A DNA stretch of 32,000 nucleotides from Candidatus Saccharimonadota bacterium (GCA_965229705.1 OZ245922.1:900001-932000), one strand, 5' to 3'. Shown: positions 431-29,757, counted from the first letter of the stretch. The notes: generated from the sequence alone by a model not told the origin. Translations and numbers: made by a program.

Positions 431-1905
<1,475 letters not shown>

Positions 1906-3138
1906 TATTTTTCCTGAAAAGCACAAAGTTCCTTTTTTCTAATATCTTGTTTATTTTGTTCCTTAGCATAATCTGATCAGTCAAAGTTAATTAACTTTAA
2001 AACTATATTATAAATTATAATATAAAAATTATTAAAATTTACTCATAGCATAAAGTGGATGCCTTGACTCGAGTATCCGATGAAGGACGTACAAGTCTGC
2101 GATAAGCTTGGAGAAGCTGACAAGAAGCGTTATTACTCCAAGATTTCCGAATGGGGGAACCTAAGAGAGCCAATCTCTCTTATCCACAAAGTGGATGGAC
2201 ACGTAGTGAACTGAAATATCTCAGTAGCTACGGAAAAGAAATCAAAAGAGATTCCCTGAGTAGTGACGAGCGAAACGGGATCAGCCCAAACCGTGATGTA
2301 TGTATAGGTAGCTTTTGTACGCACGGGGTTGTAGGAATAGTATTCGGGGAGGCTAATAAACCGGATATAGTATATTATAGTTAAGAGAAGCATGATGAAA
2401 CATGTGCCAGAGAGAGTGGAAGCCTCGTATCATAAAACTATTTTATATTGTATGTACTATTTCCTGAGTAGGATCAGGCACGTGGAACCTGGTTTGAATC
2501 TGGGGAGACCACTCTCCAAGGCTAAATAGTACTCGAGATCGATAGTGAACTAGTACCATGAGGGAAAGGTGAAAAGAACCCCGGGAGGGGAGTGAAAGAG
2601 AACCTGAAACTTTATGCTTTTAAAGAGATGGAGCCTACGGGTGACATCGTACTTTTTGTAGAACGGACCAACGAGTTAGTGAGTATGGCAAGGTTAAGAC
2701 AGTTTTAGTCGGAGCCGTAGTGAAAGCGAGCCTGAACAGGGCGTAGAGTCATACTTACTAGACCCGAAACTAGGTGAGCTTCCCATGAGCAGGCTGAAGC
2801 GGTGGTAAAACACCGTGGAGGGCCGAACCATTTGGAGCTGCAAGTCCATTGGATGACTTGTGGGAAGGAGTGAAAAGCTAATCGAACCTAGAGATAGCTG
2901 GTTCTCCGCGAAATAGCTTTAGGGCTAGCGTCGGTTAACTCTTATGGAGGGGTAGAGCTCTGATAGGGCTAGCGGGAGGCAACTCTTAGTAAACCCTGAT
3001 AAACTTCGAATACTCCATAAATTATTCCGGCAGTCAGACAGTGACAGATAAGTGCCATTGTCAAGAGGGAAACAGCCCAGACTACTATCTAAGGCCCCTA
3101 ATTCATAACTCAGTGGAAAAAGATGTGAGATTGCTGAG

Positions 3139-3169
<31 letters not shown>

Positions 3170-3170
3170 T

Positions 3171-3201
<31 letters not shown>

Positions 3202-3962
3202 TAGCGATTTTGCGCTGAAAATTCAACGGGGCTAAGTTATGAGCCGAAGATGTAGAATTATTTATAATTGGTAGCGGAGCGTTCCGTATGTTGATGAAGG
3301 TGAGTGGTGATGCTTGCTGGAGATATCGGAAGTGAAAATGTTGGTATGAGTAACGTAATGAAGATGAAAACTCTTCACACCGGATACCCAAGGTTTCCTA
3401 CGCAACGTCAGTCGACGTAGGGTGAGTCGGTCCTAAGGTGCAACCGAAAGGTGGAGCTGATGGATATCAGGTTAATATTCCTGAACTATGTATATCAGTG
3501 AAGGGGGGACATATCGGGATATAGAAGACTCTCAACGAATTGAGTTACGAAAACAAGTCTGAGAATGTAGGCAAATCCGCATTTTTAAGGACGAGTTTAG
3601 TTAAGGTAATTGTATTTGCTTGCAAATACATGACCCGGCTTCTACTATATTCGGGTATCAAGAAAAGCCTCTAAACTTATGGTATATGTAACCGTACCGA
3701 AAACGAACACTCGTGGGTTAGTGGAGAACACTCAGGTGGACGAGATAACTATGCTTAAGGAACTCGGCAAAACAGCGGTCGTAACTTCGGGATAAGACCT
3801 GCCTAGAGGGTATTTTACACTCTAGGCCGCAGCGAAAGAACTCAGGCGACTGTTTACCAAAAACACAGCTCTCTGCAAACTCGTAAGAGGATGTATAGGG
3901 GGTGATGCCTGCCCAGTGCCAGAAGGTTACGGGGATGTGTGCAAGCACTGAACTTAAGCCCT

Positions 3963-4739
<777 letters not shown>

Positions 4740-5254
4740 AAGTTCCGACCCGCACGAATGGCATAACGGTCTGAGTACTGTCTCAAGCATAGACTCGGTG
4801 AAATTGCAATGTCGGTAAAAATGCCGACTACCTGCAGCAAGACGGAAAGACCCTATGGAGCTTTACTACAGCTTGGTATTGGGTTATGTTTTAAGATGTG
4901 CAGAATAGGTGGGAGACTATGAGATATTACCGCTAGGTGATAAGGAGTCACCTTTGAGATACCACCCTTCTTACAATGTAACCCTCACCCGCAAAGCGGG
5001 GACAGTGCTTGGTGGGTAGTTTAACTGGGGCGGTTGCCTCCTAAAGAGTAACGGAGGCGCGCAATGGTTGACTATCTTCGGATGGAAATCGGAGAGATAG
5101 TGTATTCGCATAAGTCAGCCTGACTGAGAGACCTACAAGTCGATCAGACACGAAAGTGGGCGAAAGTGATCCGGCACTAACGCGTGGAAGTGGTGTCGCT
5201 CAACGGATAAAAGTTACCCTAGGGATAACAGGCTGATCGCGTCCAAGAGTTCAC

Positions 5255-5306
<52 letters not shown>

Positions 5307-5310
5307 GAGA

Positions 5311-5382
<72 letters not shown>

Positions 5383-5780
5383 TGGCCCCTATCTGCTGTA
5401 GGCGTTTAGGAATTTGAGGAGACCTGCTCCTAGTACGAGAGGACCGGAGTGGACGAACCTCTGGTGTATCGGTTGTCTGGTCTACAGGCACTGCCGAGTA
5501 GCTAAGTTCGGAATGGATAACCACTGAAAGCATCTAAGTGGGAAGCCAACTTCAAGATAAGATTCCTCTGGCCTTGAGCCAATAAGACCCCTTGAAGACT
5601 ACAAGGTTGATAGGTTTCAAGTGTAAGAGTAGTGATACTCTCAGCTGAGAAATACTAATAGGTCGAAAGAGTTTTAATATTTTTATGTAATAATTTATAT
5701 GGTGTTTTTTTTGTTAATTAACTTTGATAGGTCAGTTTATGCCTGGTTAAAATACATGTTCTTCTTGTTTAATGCTAGTA

Positions 5781-11597: not shown

Positions 11598-12380
11598 ATG
11601 CCAAATTTTAATGACTTAGATTTGAAAAAATGGAAGAATATCGACCTAGATATGAATAGTCTATGGGTAATATCAGAGAGGAAAAAAGGATGAAAACACA
11701 ATAATTTTTATCATTGAAATTTTATTCCTCAAATTCCTGAACACTTCATAAAAAGGTATACAAAAAAATGAGGTTGGGTATTAGATCCATTTTTATGAAG
11801 CGCAACTACTGCTATAGAATGTGAAGAATTATGAAGAAATGTTATTTGAATAGATATTCAAAAAGAATTAGTAGATAGAGCAAAAAAATTAATAGATTCT
11901 AAAAAAATACATGCTCATTTTTGAGTATGAGATAGTTCCTCAAAAGAAACAAGACATGATATTGAGAAAATATTAAAGCATAGGAAGCTAGATGGTGTTG
12001 ATTTAGCTTTACTTCATCCTCCTTATGCTGATATAATAAGATTTACAGATAAGAAGGAGGATCTTTCAAATAGTGGTAGTATTGAAAACTTTTTACTGGA
12101 TTTTTGAAAAGTTTTAAAAAATACATATAAACTTTTAAAAAATAAATGATATATGGTTATAGTTATGTGAGATAAATATGAGAATTCTGAATGGATACCA
12201 CTATGATTTATGTGCATGGCTGAGGCTCAAAAAGTATGATTTAAATTAAAATGAGTAATTGTTAAAAATATGGAGTGAAATAGATGAAAGGCAGGAAGTT
12301 GATGAATTTGGAAGTATAGAGCATTAAATAGTGATTACTATTTATTTAAACATGAGTATATTTTAGTTTTTAAAAAGTAA
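11598..12380 (+). CDS. DNA methyltransferase (N4-C/N6-A family, motif I before motif IV), 260 aa, 18 UGA-Gly codons
   Basis: Frame checked codon by codon. YHGNFIPQIPEHFIKRYTKKGGWVLDPFLGSATTAIECEELGRNVIGIDI matches the HxAxFPxxL...VLDPFxGSGTT...GIEI signature of N4/N6 DNA methylases. It is followed by LALLHPPYADII, a (D/N/S)PPY-type motif IV with an unusual His. Confidence 0.75.
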
Positions 12381-12402
12381 AGTAATTAACCTAGTATTAA
12401 GC

Positions 12403-13074
12403 ATGAATCAGAATCCATTTAAAAAATGATCAAAGGCTTACGATGACTTCCAGACAATGAGTGATTTATTATGGCATTGTTCTAAGTGTGAGCTAAAATC
12501 AGGTCAAGCAAAAACTTGGCAAGTTTGGAAGGATGAGAAGGGAATACAACTATGACAGGATGATAATTGAAATTATTATAATATTAAGTTATGTGAGAAT
12601 TGTTGAGTTAAAACTCATCATAGGAAGATCATTTCAACACAAATCTTAAAAGCTCTAAAACCTAGATCTTGAATTTCTACTAAGGTTGCTAAAAAGGTTA
12701 AAGATCTTTATAAAAATCAGGAAGCATTTTTTTTGAGATATTTTTCTCCAAATCAGTTAGAAGTTGATCATAAATTTCCTCAAATTAGATGGAACAGTAT
12801 AGAAAATAATAATAATGATTTATCTGATGAAGAACTTATGTGAAAGTTTATACTATTATCTAGATCGAATAACTTATGGAAGTCTAGACAATGTGAAAAG
12901 TGTTATAAAACAGGAAAAAGGTGAAACTTTCCTTGAATTTATTTTTGGTGGAAGTGAAATAATTTGTGGGATAATGAGATTAATAAATATGATGAAAAAG
13001 GATGTATATGATGTTTCTGGCATGATCCATATAAATGGAGAAAAGAACTTAATAATAAAATAAATAATTCATAA
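12403..13074 (+). CDS. Candidate HNH (beta-beta-alpha-Me) restriction endonuclease with two Cys4 zinc sites, 223 aa
   Basis: Frame checked codon by codon: no TAA or TAG, 10 TGA. WHCSKCEL...LCENCG (CxxC...CxxC), LEVDHKFPQIRWN...LLSRSNNLWKSRQCEKCYKTGKRG...GCIGCFWHDPYKW (DH...N...N core plus CxxC...CxxC). Lies between two DNA methyltransferase genes. Confidence 0.6.
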
Positions 13075-13105
13075 AATATTTTGAAAAAGTTCATAAAATA
13101 TTTGA
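13067..13105. promoter_or_regulatory. Tandem imperfect palindromes; candidate operator (C-box-like) upstream of the HTH gene
   Basis: attcataaaatattttga (13067-13084) and gttcataaaatatttga (13089-13105). The two copies are 22 bp apart. Each has a TCA-N9/10-TGA outline around an AAAATATTT(T) core. They span the last codons of the nuclease gene and the 53-nt gap before the HTH gene. Confidence 0.4.
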
Positions 13106-13127
13106 TTTTTAATTTAAAATTATCACA

Positions 13128-13331
13128 ATGTCTAAGCTAGATAAGAATTTAATAAAAAAACTTATGTTACATAAAGATATAAATACTCTTTGAGAACTTG
13201 CCAAAGCTTTAAATATCTCTAAAAGCCAACTCTCAAATTTACTCTCTAATAAGTTTAATCCTATAAAGAGTAACATTCAGGAAATTGCTGATTTTTTTCA
13301 GGTTGATCCAATTGATTTACTAAAAAAATAA
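13128..13331 (+). CDS. XRE-family helix-turn-helix protein (R-M controller-like), 67 aa
   Basis: MSKLDKNLIKKLMLHKDINTLGELAKALNISKSQLSNLLSNKFNPIKSNIQEIADFFQVDPIDLLKK. Shows the typical HTH_3 pattern (ELAxxxxISxSxLSxxxxxK..P....L.xIAxxLxV). Its stop is 2 nt before the next methyltransferase ATG. Confidence 0.8.
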
Positions 13332-13333
13332 AT

Positions 13334-14401
13334 ATGAACTATATTTGATCAAAAAAATCCTTATTAGAATTTATAGAAAGTTCTATAGCAAAAGTGGTGA
13401 AAGAGAAAGATTATAAATTTTCTGATCTTTTTGCTGGTACTTGAATAGTATGAAGATATTTTAAAGAAAAATGACATAGCGTTATAGCTAATGACTTACA
13501 GTATTATAGCTATGTGATAAATAAAAACTATATAGAAAATCACAAACCCTTAGAGTTTAAAGGTTTATTTGATATTATTGAGTGATTAAAAGATACTGAA
13601 ATACTAGAAAGAAATAATTTAGTACTAAATTATTTAGATTTATTAAAATGAAAAAAGGGATTTATTTATAAAAACTATTCTATTTGATGAACTAAATGAC
13701 AAGAACATGAAAGAATGTATTTCAGTGATGAAAATGCAATGAAGTGTGATGCTATTAGAACGCAAATAGAAAATTGGAAAAAATTAAAATCAATAGATGA
13801 AAATGAATACTATTTTTTACTAGCTAGCTTATTAGAAAATATAGATAAAGTAGCAAACACGGCTTCCGTTTATGGAGCTTTTTTAAAGAAATTAAAAAGG
13901 TCTGCACAAGCTTTAATGAGTTTAAAACCAGCTAATTTCTTCTTAAATGATCATGAACATCTAGTTTATAATTCTGATGTAAATGAGTTAGTAAAAAACA
14001 CATCTCATGATGTTGTATATTTAGATCCTCCATACAATGAAAGGCAGTATAGTGCAAACTATCATTTACTTGAAACAATTGCAAAATACGATAATCCTCA
14101 AATAAAGTGAAAAACTTGAATAAGAGATTATAAGGAACAAAAATCACTATATTGTAAAAAAGTAGAAGTAAAAAAATCATTTAGAGATTTAATTCAAAAT
14201 ATAGATGCTAAGTATGTGTTTTTAAGTTATAACTGCGAGGGGCTAATGAGTTTTGACGACATTAAGAAGATCATGTCAGAAAGATGAAAATATTGAGTAT
14301 TTACAAAAAAGTACAGAAGGTTTAAAGCCGATAAAACAGAATCAAGAAGCCATAAGAAAGATAGTGTAATCGAGTATTTGCATTATATTATTATCAGCTA
14401 A
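13334..14401 (+). CDS. Dam-family (D12 class, alpha) N6-adenine DNA methyltransferase, 355 aa, 13 UGA-Gly codons
   Basis: Frame checked codon by codon. MNYIGSKKSLLEFIE (YxGxK), DLFAGTGIVG (motif I), VVYLDPPYNERQYSANYH (DPPY motif IV), and the C-terminal YVFLSYNCEGLMS typical of this family. Confidence 0.85.
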
Positions 14402-26448: not shown

Positions 26449-29400
26449 ATGTACCCTCATCAAAAAATAGAAAAAAAATGGCAAGAGTACTGGAAAGAAC
26501 ACAATACCTTTCAAACACCAAACTTTTCACTCAAACCAAAGTACTATGTACTTGATATGTTTCCCTATCCAAGCGGAGCAGGCCTTCATGTTGGTCATCC
26601 AGAGTGATATACCGCAAATGATATTATTGCGAGATATAAGCACGCAAAAGGCTATAATGTCCTGCATCCTATGGGTTGGGATGCTTTTGGTTTACCTGCA
26701 GAAAACTATGCAATTAAAACGGGAACACACCCGAGTATTACTACTAAAGAGAATATTGCTACTTTTAAGAGACAGATAGAGTCACTGGGGTTTTCATATG
26801 ATTGGGAAAGAGAGATAGATACGACGGATCCTGATTTTTTTCAGTGGACGCAGTGGATATTTCTCAAGCTTTTTGAACATGGCCTTGCCTATGAACAAGA
26901 CATCCCTATTAATTATTGCCCAAGCTGCGCGACAGGCCTGGCAAATGAGGAGGTTTTATGAGACTTTAGTTGTGAACGCTGTGGGGATCAAGTCGTGAAA
27001 AAAAAGATTCGCCAGTGGGTACTCGCTATTACCCAGTACGCTGAAAGACTTCTCCAAGATGTAGATGATCTTGACTGGCCCGAAGGTATCAAGGATATGC
27101 AAAGAAATTGGATAGGAAAATCGGAAGGATGCGAGTTTGAGATGAAAAAAAGAGATAATAAGAATCACTCTATTCGAGTCTATACTACCCGAGTAGATAC
27201 GGTTTTTGGGATGACTTATGCCGTGATTGCTCCTGATCATCCAGATATACAAAACTTTATTAGTGATGAGTATAGGACGGATTGTGAAACCTATATTGAT
27301 AGAGCAAATAAGCAATCAGATCAAAACAGAACTGCAGATGGAAAAGAGAAAACAGGAGTGTTTACGGGAAGCTTTGTACTAAACCCCTACAATGACGAAT
27401 CAGTTCCACTTTGGATAGCAGACTATGTTCTTGGAAACTATGGAACAGGAGCGGTTATGGCAGTTCCAGCTCATGATGTGCGAGACTTTGAGTTTGCGAA
27501 AAAATATGATTTGCCAATAAAACAGAGTATTGAGTCTCAATTTGAGTGGGATTGAGAAAAGGCAACAACTAATTATGGAACTCTCGTAAACTCTTGAGAG
27601 TATAACTGACTTACATCACAGCAAGCAAAAGAACAATTAACAGCTCTTGCGCAGGAAAAATGATTTGGAGCAAAAAAAGTAAACTATAAGCTGAGAGATT
27701 GGCTTTTTTCTCGCCAAAGATACTGGTGAGAGCCGATTCCTCTGATACATATTGAAGAAGAAGATATTGCAAAACTTCCAAGAGAGTTTTCTGAAGATGC
27801 CTGGCTGAAAGATGATATCCTTATGATAGGAGAGGAAAAAATCTCAAAAATCTATAATGGACTCTACACAAAAATCATATGTGATTATGATCTCCCTGTG
27901 AAACTTCCAGAAGTTCAAGAATATAAACCAGCAGGAGATGGAAACTCTCCACTCATCAATGTTCCAGATTTTGTAAATGTTCAAATAGCAAAAAACCTTG
28001 CAGGAAAAAGAGAGACAAACACTATGCCTCAGTGGGGATGATCGTGTTGGTATTACTTGCGTTTTATGGACCCAAAAAACAAAAACGTCTTAGTATGAAA
28101 AAACGTAGAGGAATATTGGGGAAATGTTGACTCATACGTATGAGGAGCAGAACATGCTGTCCTACATTTGCTTTATGCTCGTTTTTGGCACAAATTTCTC
28201 TATGATATAGGAGTAGTATCGACACATGAACCATTTTATAGACTCAGAAATCAGTGAATGATACTGGGTATGAGTTATAAAAATAGTAAGGGAAAGCTGA
28301 TTGCGGGCGATTTTGTTGAAGAGAGGGACGGAAAGTATTTTGATATCGAGACAGGAGATGAGCTCGAAAAAGTTCCTGCAAAGATGAGTAAATCTTTGAA
28401 AAATGTTATCAATCCTGATGATATCGTAAAAGAGTATGGGGCCGATACTCTTCGCATGTATGAGATGTATATGGCAGATTTTAAAGATGCTGCGCCGTGG
28501 GATACCAGCTCTATAGTTGGGCTACGAAGGTTTCTGGATAAGGTGTATGTTCTCTTTGTTGAAGGAAAAGAAAAGTTTGCCAGCTCAGACGAAGAAGCAT
28601 TAAAAGTCCTTCATAAAGCCATTAAAAAAATAGGAGAAGATATTGAGAACTATAAGTTTAATACGGCCATAGCCCAGCTCATGATTCTTATGAATACGGG
28701 TATACCAAAGTCTTGAGAATGACAGCGTCAGTGGAAAAAATCATTTTTGATACTTCTGCATCCATTTGCTCCTCATATGGCAGAAGAATGCTGGAAAAAA
28801 CTCAAAGAGAGTGAAAAATGAAAGAATACAGAATACAAGAAAGTATATTTTGCTACGAGCAATGCAGGAAAAATAGAGAGAGCACAAAAGTGTCTCAAGG
28901 TTCTTGATGAAAGTGTACAACTACTCTCATATCCTGATGTGCAGAAAGTTGAAGAAACATGAAACACTCCTCTTGAATGCGCTTTGCAAAAACTCGAACC
29001 ATATATATGAAAAGGTATCGAAGTTCCAGTTATTTCTGCAGATACGGCAGTATATTTTGAGTGACAAGACTTTGATCCAACTCATGTGAGACGCATAGTA
29101 CTTGAGAGTATATGAAAATCAGAAGACGATCTCAGCGCGGAAGAAATGGCAAGAGAGATGGTAGAGTTTTATAAGAAAAAAGCACAAGATGCAGGCGGAG
29201 AGCTTGAATTTTATTATCAAGATGCTTTTGCAGTACTCTTTCCAAATGGGGAGATAAAAAATTATGCCTACAATAGATACTACAAGCTGACAGATCAGCA
29301 TGAGGGGGATATACATATCCATGTTCCCATGAGATGACTGTATTATTCTTGTATTACAGGAAAAAGAGCAGCAGAAACAAGTGAAGATGATTACCTTAAA

Positions 29401-29697
29401 GAGTTTGCGTCTCAAGTAGATGCTTTTAGAGAACTTTTTGGCTATGAGAGAGAATCTATATTTTTTGAGTCTTGGCCAGAGTATGATGAACAAATTATTA
29501 TAGATAATGAGCTAACTATAGGAGTGCAAGTTTTGTGAAAGCTTCGAGGTGAGATACAGATATCAAAAAACGAAGACCAGTCTGCTGTTCTGGAAAAAGC
29601 AAAAAATAATGAAAATGTTGCGAAATGGCTTGAGGAAAAACAAATCATAAAAGAGATTTATGTTCCAGGCAAGATTGTGAATATTGTTGTGAAGTAA
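26449..29697 (+). CDS. leuS: Leucyl-tRNA synthetase with an in-frame Ham1/ITPase-like domain of about 220 aa inserted before the C-terminal domain (1082 aa, about 20 UGA-Gly)
   Basis: [15 protein letters not shown]..., LHVGHPEGYTAND (HIGH), TTRVDTVFG and [12 protein letters not shown] (CP1 editing), [58 protein letters not shown], and C-terminal VQVLGKLRGEI...[14 protein letters not shown] checked codon by codon from 28711 to 29697 that no TAA or TAG interrupts the frame. Start ATG 26449 is preferred to the GTG at 26413. Confidence 0.93.
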
Positions 29698-29757
29698 TAG
29701 AGTGAGTTATTCTTTGAATTGTGGAAATACGAAAAAGAACATACTTTTCCCCTATGA

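Follow-up and report, generated by a model that had tools for sequence, protein, structure and literature searches.

A 32,000-nucleotide stretch of DNA from Candidatus Saccharimonadota bacterium (GCA_965229705.1 OZ245922.1:900001-932000; hereafter the window) carries a leuS gene, encoding leucyl-tRNA synthetase (LeuRS), whose product is interrupted in frame by a second protein domain. This insert is almost certainly a nested domain of the Ham1 fold that is specific to one clade. An initial annotation, made from the sequence alone, had proposed a Ham1/ITPase-like domain inside leuS, and three independent tests agree on its presence: the Pfam profile PF01725 (Ham1p_like) matches above its cut-off, fold matches extend over the full length of the domain, and the phosphate and metal residues are kept. 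We think it somewhat better than an even bet that the domain is an autonomous house-cleaning nucleotide pyrophosphatase for which LeuRS serves as a scaffold.

The leuS coding sequence (26449..29697, plus strand) comprises 1082 codons and then a TAA stop, with a TAG next to it. The initial annotation had reported it as open throughout, and this holds: in the translation of 26449-29700, all 20 internal 'stops' are TGA and none is TAA or TAG. TGA codons are found at three glycines that are identical in Thermus thermophilus LeuRS, namely those of RQRYW-G (residue 427), V-G-GAEH (565) and Q-G-M (603). Because these codons coincide with conserved glycines of a solved LeuRS, TGA is read here as glycine (genetic code 25), in a genome of the Gracilibacteria type, and table 25, with which the gene was to be translated, gives the right reading. 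A tRNA-Gly(UCA), which would be direct support for this code, was sought in the window and not found; the tRNAs present there are those for Met, Arg and Val.

The LeuRS body is complete and its parts are in the expected order: HIGH (as HVGH), the CP1 editing domain, RQRYWG, KMSKS, the anticodon-binding domain and the C-terminal domain. Thus, the claim that every canonical element is present is borne out by motif inspection, by Pfam, which finds tRNA-synt_1, tRNA-synt_1_2 (the LeuRS editing domain, 211 bits) and Anticodon_1, and by alignment to T. thermophilus LeuRS in four collinear blocks (E=3.9e-201). The portion before the insert (aa 1-785; 26449..28803, plus strand) carries HVGH, CP1, RQRYWG, KMSKS and the anticodon-binding helical domain, and is 60-88% identical to Gracilibacteria LeuS. 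LeuRS resumes at aa 1002-1082 (29452..29694, plus strand) with the C-terminal tRNA-binding domain (VQVLGKLRG...), which aligns to residues 797-877 of the T. thermophilus enzyme. LeuRS itself is intact and is presumably still charging tRNA-Leu.

In the same alignment, residue 783 of the window's protein pairs with T. thermophilus residue 792 and residue 1002 pairs with residue 797, so that about 218 residues stand where T. thermophilus LeuRS has 4. The insert proper (aa 786-1001, 216 residues; 28804..29451, plus strand) takes the place of this 4-residue loop, which in near relatives measures about 19 residues from HPFAPH to WPxYD. It begins with an N-terminal tether (aa 786-797, KESEKGKNTEYK; 28804..28839, plus strand) that is variable among relatives and, in the homologue model described below, is not part of the folded core. 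The folded Ham1/ITPase-like domain follows (aa 798-997; 28840..29439, plus strand), as delimited by PF01725, the homologue model and Foldseek. A short C-terminal tether (aa 998-1001, GYER; 29440..29451, plus strand), drawn from the homologue model and from a model of the domain in its context, completes the insert. The uninterrupted loop of one relative reads ...AEELWSTIGQKESIFLSSWPTYDE, and those of 53 relatives are alike. Because these loops contain ESIFF (aa 1002-1006), this peptide is native LeuS and the insert ends at aa 1001.

These boundaries refine those first assigned. The peptide before the insert does end at 28803 and ESWPEYDEQ does start at 29467, but the insert ends 15 nucleotides earlier than had been proposed, at 29451. 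Similarly, a large extra segment is confirmed against the 4-residue T. thermophilus loop, and the estimate of about 221 extra codons becomes 216 residues for the insert proper. Four peptides that had been quoted from the insert are all present at their assigned positions, and in three of them a glycine derives from TGA. The insertion site had been placed exactly at the hinge before the C-terminal domain. It is actually the last loop of the anticodon-binding domain, some 20 residues upstream of the C-terminal domain, and 'C-hinge' is used below merely as a label for this site. We also considered a repeat resembling a target-site duplication at the junctions, where KES precedes and ES follows the insert in the window, and rejected it: there is no consistent duplication in relatives.

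When run on the insert alone, PF01725 scores 34.7 bits against a gathering cut-off of 22.5 (E=2.2e-8), although the match covers profile positions 1-103 of 186 only. The corresponding scores of relatives range from 26.5 to 89 bits. There is no Pfam Maf match to the insert at E<=10. A comparison of the two profiles, as the initial annotation had recommended, thus gives a Ham1p_like score above the gathering threshold and no match for Maf.

A structure prediction had been recommended as well, and it was made with AlphaFold2 from a 14-sequence alignment on the domain of a same-site homologue (P0001), which is the closest complete one and is 57% identical to the insert. The resulting model (predicted local distance difference test score, pLDDT, 91.4; predicted template modelling score, pTM, 0.84) has the ITPase fold over its full length. 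In a Foldseek search of the PDB with this model, ranks 1-28 are all of the Ham1/ITPase type, with E values of 1e-10 to 1e-7, 200-220 aligned columns and target-normalised template modelling (TM) scores of 0.55-0.75. The top entries include S. aureus Ham1, human ITPA, PH1917, Mj0226, TM0159, RdgB and KomBC complexes. Because Foldseek aligns 200-220 columns, the ITPase fold extends over the whole insert, beyond its first half. Maf proteins (YhdE, YceF) have a related fold within the ITPase/Maf superfamily and act in the house-cleaning of modified nucleotides (PMC3899018). Maf structures rank 29th and lower in the search (E 1e-6 to 1e-4), and we rejected the insert as a Maf family member on account of this weaker fold match (TM 0.36-0.46 versus 0.55-0.75 for Ham1) and of the Pfam result.

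At the level of sequence, the relationship to known members of the superfamily is distant. Comparison with solved ITPases by phmmer, profile hmmsearch and hhalign yields weak matches of 13-21% identity over the N-terminal 75-100 residues or so only. Scores for the RdgB/ITPA equivalog models fall far short, with 29.3 bits versus a cut-off of 267 for NF011399 and 27.5 bits versus 145.35 for TIGR00042, and free-standing relatives of the insert likewise lie far under these cut-offs. Because of these scores, and because the base-discriminating motifs described below are absent, the insert belongs to a divergent Ham1 subfamily and is not an RdgB/ITPA orthologue. The suspicion that the domain might be divergent was therefore well placed.

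Residues were paired with those of human ITPA by using a sequence identical to 2CAR, and conservation was tabulated for 104 domains placed on the family hidden Markov model (HMM). These comprise 9 C-hinge copies, 15 copies from the LeuRS CP1 junction, 1 from a third LeuRS site, 62 free-standing copies and 17 other fusions. In the ATSNAGK motif (28855..28872, plus strand), T803, N805 and K808 correspond in profile alignments to ITPA T14, N16 and K19, and are at least 80% conserved in the 104 domains. In EETG...ECALQK (28954..28992, plus strand), E836 (the second Glu of EET) corresponds to Glu44 and K848 to Lys56, and G838 is encoded by TGA. The Asp of SADTAVYF, D865 (29041..29043, plus strand), corresponds to Asp72, and Asp occupies this position in 103 of the 104 domains, including all nine C-hinge copies. 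K972 of a TGK motif (29362..29364, plus strand) is also conserved family-wide; it may be the counterpart of the late GK of canonical RdgB, on a pairing made by eye.

Thus, the positions with at least 80% conservation are the ITPA-equivalent residues together with G838, E843, A845, Y852, P877, R882, Y908, G916, G917, P960 and K972. The equivalents of T/N/K, Glu44, Lys56 and Asp72, as well as the late Lys, are kept in essentially all nine C-hinge copies. Both Glu44 and Asp72 are among the crucial residues of human ITPA (PMC9016069). N-x-x-K, EETG and one Asp had been recognised as kept from the outset, and these are indeed the equivalents of ITPA T14/N16/K19, Glu44 and Asp72. The accompanying description of ADTAV as a degraded DDSGL is misleading, since the sequence around Asp72 in human ITPA is VEDTCLCF. 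ADT is therefore not a decayed DDSGL, and the invariant Asp aligns with ITPA Asp72. One position of side interest is C844 (28978-28980; HMM column 50), where the family-wide E-N-A reads E-C-A in 8 of the 9 C-hinge copies, placing an Asn-to-Cys change beside the conserved Lys.

There is no SHR (Arg178) and no FGYDP/FGWDP (Phe149) in the insert sequence or in the family conservation table, in agreement with the initial annotation, which could recognise neither GFGYDP nor SHR in the distal part. A motif search of 72 free-standing relatives finds SHR in 1/72 and FGYDP in 0/72. Canonical members of the Ham1/ITPase family (RdgB, human ITPA, Mj0226, PH1917; PF01725) are house-cleaning pyrophosphatases for non-canonical purine nucleoside triphosphates (NTPs), and the insert shares with them the fold, T-x-N-x-x-K and the Glu44/Lys56/Asp72 equivalents. 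It differs from them in lacking the SHR/Arg178 and FGYDP/Phe149 substrate-discrimination elements, and in being nested where theirs are free-standing. Its subfamily also has conserved positions of its own, namely PTxVRR, Y908, GG916-917 and P960. Canonical ITPases form homodimers.

There are eight further representatives of the same insert at the same LeuRS site, found by scanning one genome per GTDB species, and all are in Gracilibacteria metagenome-assembled genomes (MAGs) from different projects. Compared with the window, their inserts are 49-57% identical and their LeuRS bodies 60-88% identical; the insert therefore evolves faster than its host. No TAA or TAG codon, frameshift or deletion occurs in the insert across the nine lineages. 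The GC content of the window's insert is 0.365 versus 0.387 for the remainder of leuS. The insert appears to be under purifying selection, because identity has been maintained at 49-57% over nine lineages without TAA or TAG and because its GC content is gene-like. Dozens of metagenome protein fragments also span one or both junctions.

When the insert was deleted from the query, 53 of the nearest LeuS relatives across the junction proved to have a plain loop (typically 19 residues from HPFAPH to WPxYD), and eight others have unrelated expansions of 33-52 residues at the same loop. Segments of about 230 residues are found only in the window's clade. The expansions, mostly of low complexity, occur in the Gracilibacteria LeuS fragments P0204, P0207, P0226, P0227, P0244, P0272, P0277 and P0279. 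This loop is a permissive hotspot of length variation. The answer to whether the insert is lineage-wide in Gracilibacteria, as the initial annotation had asked, is therefore no: one clade of eight MAGs and the window carries it, versus 53 relatives with the plain loop. A crude neighbour-joining tree, based on p-distances between sequences that are about 30% identical, places the C-hinge copies in one group and interleaves nested with free copies. This is consistent with a single acquisition, such that the insert marks one Gracilibacteria subclade.

The window comes from a metagenome-type assembly, its 23S rRNA gene holds a group I intron with a homing endonuclease, and one topoisomerase host of the module described below has an intein. 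These circumstances could favour an artefact or an untranslated element, such as an assembly chimera, an intron or insertion sequence, or an intein removed from the mature protein. However, the recurrence of the identical architecture and junction in eight independent MAGs and in many fragments over both junctions indicates that the insert is not an artefact. Its frame is open against odds of about 4e-6, which is the chance of a 221-codon stretch without TAA or TAG given the local base composition of the gene, whereas the five other frames are all closed by 1-9 TAA or TAG codons each. Conservation is also seen at the protein level. There is no Rfam intron match at gathering score in leuS, no Pfam intein or HINT match in LeuS, and the Ham1 fold explains the insert in full. 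Inteins require Cys, Ser or Thr directly after them, and the residue after the insert is Glu1002. Explanations of this kind are barely credible.

Another possibility is that the insert is an inert structural relic, wherein a captured Ham1 domain that no longer binds any ligand is tolerated as a spacer in a length-variable loop. The unrelated expansions in eight relatives, some of low complexity, and the faster evolution of the insert would fit such a role. However, residues of the active-site type are the most conserved positions across nine lineages, in nested and free-standing copies alike. Moreover, the fold is predicted with high confidence and none of the nine lineages shows a frameshift or deletion that would signal decay. 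We consider this explanation very improbable.

The domain is not restricted to the C-hinge site. A profile search of 1.84 billion representative proteins yields 463 relatives at E<=1e-3. Many of these are free-standing proteins of about 200-215 residues (62 among the 104 aligned domains). One of them (P0018) lies in an archaeal-type context beside the genes for ribosomal protein S17e and a tRNA-intron endonuclease, and another (P0030) is followed by a Ser_hydrolase gene. The second site of insertion in LeuRS is the N-terminal junction of CP1, between NWIGKSEG...F and I-x-V-[YF]-TTR, and is occupied in L010, L011, P0062, P0063, P0070, P0071, P0077-79 and P0098. A third LeuRS site, after RQRYWG, is used in P0101. 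LeuRS is by far the commonest host.

The same module is also nested in proteins other than LeuRS. In DNA topoisomerase I (TopA), it is located between Toprim and the core (P0065, 1621 aa; P0069, 982 aa). The larger of these two proteins also has a NUDIX domain beside the module and a LAGLIDADG intein further on. Additional hosts are a Cbf5/TruB pseudouridine synthase, in which the module precedes PUA (P0064), a pyridine-nucleotide disulphide oxidoreductase (Pyr_redox; P0119) and a class II aminoacyl-tRNA synthetase (aaRS) with tRNA-synt_2b and HGTP_anticodon (P0147). End-to-end fusions join the module to NUDIX, HAD, Ser_hydrolase, RNase PH or a DNA-alkylation-repair domain. The module recurs with NUDIX, HAD and Ser_hydrolase, whether these are nested, fused or encoded by neighbouring genes.

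Some LeuRS proteins carry whole sets of inserted modules, namely GNAT, NUDIX and Ham1 in L001, HAD, Ham1, NUDIX and a nucleotidyltransferase in L011, NUDIX, Ham1 and HAD in P0150, and Ham1, NUDIX and Ser_hydrolase in P0079. The LeuS of L001 (DINU01000003.1, UBA5532) is 1452 aa long and has the C-hinge Ham1 domain, a GNAT acetyltransferase at the CP1 junction and NUDIX in CP1, so that three foreign enzyme modules reside in one protein. The LeuRS of L011 (DYJS01000001.1, 2651-8035, labelled Candidatus Methylomirabilis) reaches 1795 aa, with a weak second Ham1-like segment and a domain resembling aminoglycoside nucleotidyltransferases. Because its Ham1-like domain is closest to that of a LeuRS of the type found in the candidate phyla radiation (CPR; 76% identity to P0063), the L011 contig may be mis-binned.

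Two genomes labelled Peribacteria show other arrangements. In the complete genome L009 (CP060226.1, labelled Candidatus Peribacteria), leuS (815-4624) has 11 in-frame TGA codons, so that TGA is a sense codon in this genome. The CP1 of its LeuRS contains NUDIX, the loop used for insertion in the window holds about 30 residues of low-complexity filler, and a free-standing Ham1-like gene is located 57 nucleotides downstream of the leuS stop on the same strand. We rejected the notion that free-standing copies generally reside beside leuS, since this was seen in L009 only; the contexts of P0018 and P0030 are those given above. The second genome, L010 (CAYUZH010000077.1, labelled Peribacteria), encodes a LeuS of 1272 aa with 15 in-frame TGA codons, a close relative that is 80% identical in its catalytic N-terminal part. 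It is without a C-hinge insert and has a Ham1-like domain at the CP1 junction whose nearest relatives are C-hinge copies (51% identity to L007). This copy could have moved from one site to the other within leuS, or could have been captured a second time from the source of the first.

Nested and free-standing copies are up to 57% identical, and nested copies of the CP1-junction group have a median identity of 34% among themselves. Because nested copies are as close to free genes as to each other, there appear to have been repeated transitions between the nested and the free-standing state. Thus, this architecture is not peculiar to one genome: other MAGs carry the same insert, and related nestings occur at other LeuRS sites and in other proteins. 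The 62 free-standing homologues, together with nesting in unrelated hosts and at several LeuRS sites, indicate an autonomous domain that does not depend on any one host.

The function that we favour, as somewhat more likely than not, is that of an autonomous nucleotide pyrophosphatase in house-cleaning. One ancestor of a Gracilibacteria subclade would have acquired the domain, which would have been kept under purifying selection since. Short tethers attach it to the anticodon-binding domain at the last surface loop of the latter, just ahead of the tRNA-binding domain at the C-terminus. With the triphosphate and Mg2+ residues kept and those that select hypoxanthine or xanthine absent, it may convert an NTP to the monophosphate and pyrophosphate, acting on a non-canonical nucleotide other than ITP or XTP. 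In this role, the domain would be one part of a nucleotide house-cleaning toolkit, alongside the Nudix and HAD modules found with it elsewhere, and LeuRS would be merely a constitutively expressed, insertion-tolerant scaffold. From what is observed of the domain's existence, fold, residue conservation, clade distribution and promiscuous nesting, we infer its catalytic activity, type of substrate and independence from LeuRS.

Several further observations bear on this proposal. The insert has an acidic pI of 4.9, which would be expected of an enzyme but not of a protein that binds RNA. The context model has a pLDDT of 87.9 but a pTM of only 0.54, which suggests confident domains without fixed inter-domain geometry and hence a loosely tethered domain. 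In addition, aaRSs in general are favoured targets of domain insertion (PMC13114784).

Unfortunately, a number of points weigh against catalysis by an independent domain. SHR/Arg178 and FGYDP/Phe149 are missing and Ala replaces the first acidic residue of the DD/ED pair, so the nucleotide pocket is remodelled and catalysis could be lost. The C-terminal half is related to ITPases by fold alone, given that sequence profiles stop after the first 75-100 residues or so, and the structure comes from a 57%-identical proxy rather than from the window's own sequence. The HAM1-like protein KomB of the Kongming system acts by binding dITP as a signal (PMC13454610). Furthermore, the preference for LeuRS, at three sites, and the position of the free gene 57 nucleotides downstream of leuS in L009 provide hints of a LeuRS-specific link that the scaffold model leaves unexplained.

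Perhaps the domain instead serves as a nucleotide sensor, which would bind a damaged or signalling nucleotide, not necessarily with turnover, and thereby modulate aminoacylation or editing by LeuRS. KomBC complexes are among the fold matches, and dITP binding to KomB activates that system (PMC13454610). Sensing would also fit the remodelling of base-recognition motifs while phosphate-binding residues are kept, the preference for LeuRS with its three insertion sites, and the position of the free gene next to leuS in L009. The insertion point just upstream of the mobile C-terminal tRNA-binding domain would likewise be well suited to it. However, LeuRS-specific allostery is hard to reconcile with a module that is mostly free-standing and is also present in TopA, Cbf5, a disulphide oxidoreductase and a class II aaRS. 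In addition, a pure binder could dispense with the equivalents of Asp72 and Glu44, yet both are strictly conserved, and the low pTM of the context model suggests that there is no fixed interface with the LeuRS body. We regard such a sensor as unlikely, though not far-fetched, and as the foremost alternative to the pyrophosphatase.

The Kongming anti-phage system is also of interest as a known relative. KomB, which is HAM1-like and binds dITP (PMC13454610), has the Ham1 fold (entries 9xvc, 9v0g and 8zsg are among the fold matches) and offers a precedent for a Ham1-like protein that acts by nucleotide binding in a larger assembly (PMC13454610). There is no SIR2 partner (KomC) or KomA deaminase in the annotated part of the window, whose annotation is partial. 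PADLOC gives no match with a library of 2023 that may lack Kongming, and the surroundings of leuS are core genome, unlike a defence island.

A different way of accounting for the host preference is chemistry directed at LeuRS itself, such as hydrolysis of mis-activated aminoacyl-adenylates, of Ap4A-type dinucleotides or of a nucleotide antibiotic that targets LeuRS, or else tRNA binding. LeuRS is strongly preferred, with three independent loops, and the gene in L009 is adjacent to leuS. The module also shares LeuRS hosts with Nudix, whose members hydrolyse nucleoside-diphosphate-X compounds. However, the acidic pI is unfavourable for tRNA binding, hosts without adenylate chemistry exist (TopA, Cbf5, Pyr_redox), and most of the free-standing copies examined are not near leuS. 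The insertion site is presumably also far from the synthetic and editing active sites, judging from the architecture of LeuRS, and this counts against such chemistry as well. Thus, we hold LeuRS-directed activity to be quite improbable.

Discrete modules in a surface loop, with the host fold continuing on both sides, are familiar from class I aaRSs, where CP1 editing and the leucine-specific domain are examples. Unlike those known LeuRS insertions, which serve aminoacylation or editing and are synthetase-specific, the module described here comes from an unrelated enzyme superfamily and is also found free-standing and in hosts that are not synthetases. The HAM1 proteins of the potyvirids CBSV and UCBSV (PMC6640186, PMC8893687) are likewise Ham1-family pyrophosphatases inside a larger polypeptide of unrelated function. 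They are released or act within a viral polyprotein and keep canonical ITPase motifs, whereas the LeuRS insert is part of a single cellular enzyme with no sign of processing.

The surroundings of leuS in the window are those of a core genome, with an rRNA operon, a ribosomal-protein cluster, secY, an O-methyltransferase gene, leuS and trmD. There is nothing in the partial annotation of the 32 kb window that points to a mobile or defence island around leuS. Elsewhere in the window, the 23S rRNA gene (2032-5679) spans 3648 nucleotides versus 2925 for the model, and contains sub-threshold half-matches to a group I intron at 4009-4310 and 4614-4727 (feature 4009-4727). Between these halves, an open reading frame (4239-4703) encodes 154 aa with a LAGLIDADG_1 homing endonuclease match (95 bits) and has 6 in-frame TGA codons. 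A block of low GC content (11598-14401; 0.25 versus about 0.35) carries genes for an N6_N4 DNA methylase, an IceA-like putative restriction endonuclease and a D12-class adenine methylase. This block, located between pheS-like/prs-like genes and the ribosomal-protein cluster, probably represents a type II restriction-modification cassette gained by horizontal transfer.

It is already known that domains insert into aaRSs, which are a textbook case of function gained by domain accretion, and the Ham1 superfamily itself is well known. To our knowledge, every LeuRS insertion described in bacteria contributes to aminoacylation or proofreading. What appears to be new is the LeuRS::Ham1-like architecture, the divergent subfamily, and its promiscuous nesting in essential enzymes together with Nudix and HAD. 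A search of the open-access literature and bioRxiv, with subscription journals and domain-architecture databases outside its scope, revealed no description of Ham1, Nudix or HAD nested in LeuRS, or of Ham1 or Nudix in CPR housekeeping proteins. The initial annotation, which knew of no LeuS with a Ham1 insert, is thus in accord with these sources.

One reason for this may lie in gene prediction. Public gene calls fragment these genes at TGA or read TGA as Trp, which places W at conserved Gly positions (e.g. P0008, P0028, P0030 and P0031), and the database matches are fragments of 44-473 residues, some with Trp at Gly positions. Gene calling under code 11 or code 4 shreds these genes, such that the architecture is nearly invisible in standard annotation. 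Fragmented calls may therefore explain why it has gone unnoticed.

More tentatively, and with a little less than even confidence, we propose a broader pattern in which CPR bacteria and at least one archaeal-type lineage repeatedly nest nucleotide house-cleaning modules, singly or as cassettes, in loops of essential information-processing enzymes. The guild of modules might comprise divergent Ham1-like, Nudix, HAD and Ser-hydrolase domains, sometimes with GNAT or a nucleotidyltransferase, which would pass to and fro between free-standing, adjacent, fused and nested states. Its hosts might be LeuRS at three or more sites, topoisomerase I, Cbf5, a class II aaRS and a disulphide oxidoreductase. 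Such nesting could be caused by piggy-backing on host expression in streamlined, regulator-poor genomes, by hitch-hiking on genes that cannot be lost, or by a true functional link that ties quality control of the nucleotide pool to both translation and DNA topology.

An active domain would represent a specificity class new to the ITPase superfamily, and it would show how ultra-small CPR cells, which depend on salvage, package nucleotide sanitation. If the domain instead regulates LeuRS, it would constitute a direct link between the quality of the nucleotide pool and translation.

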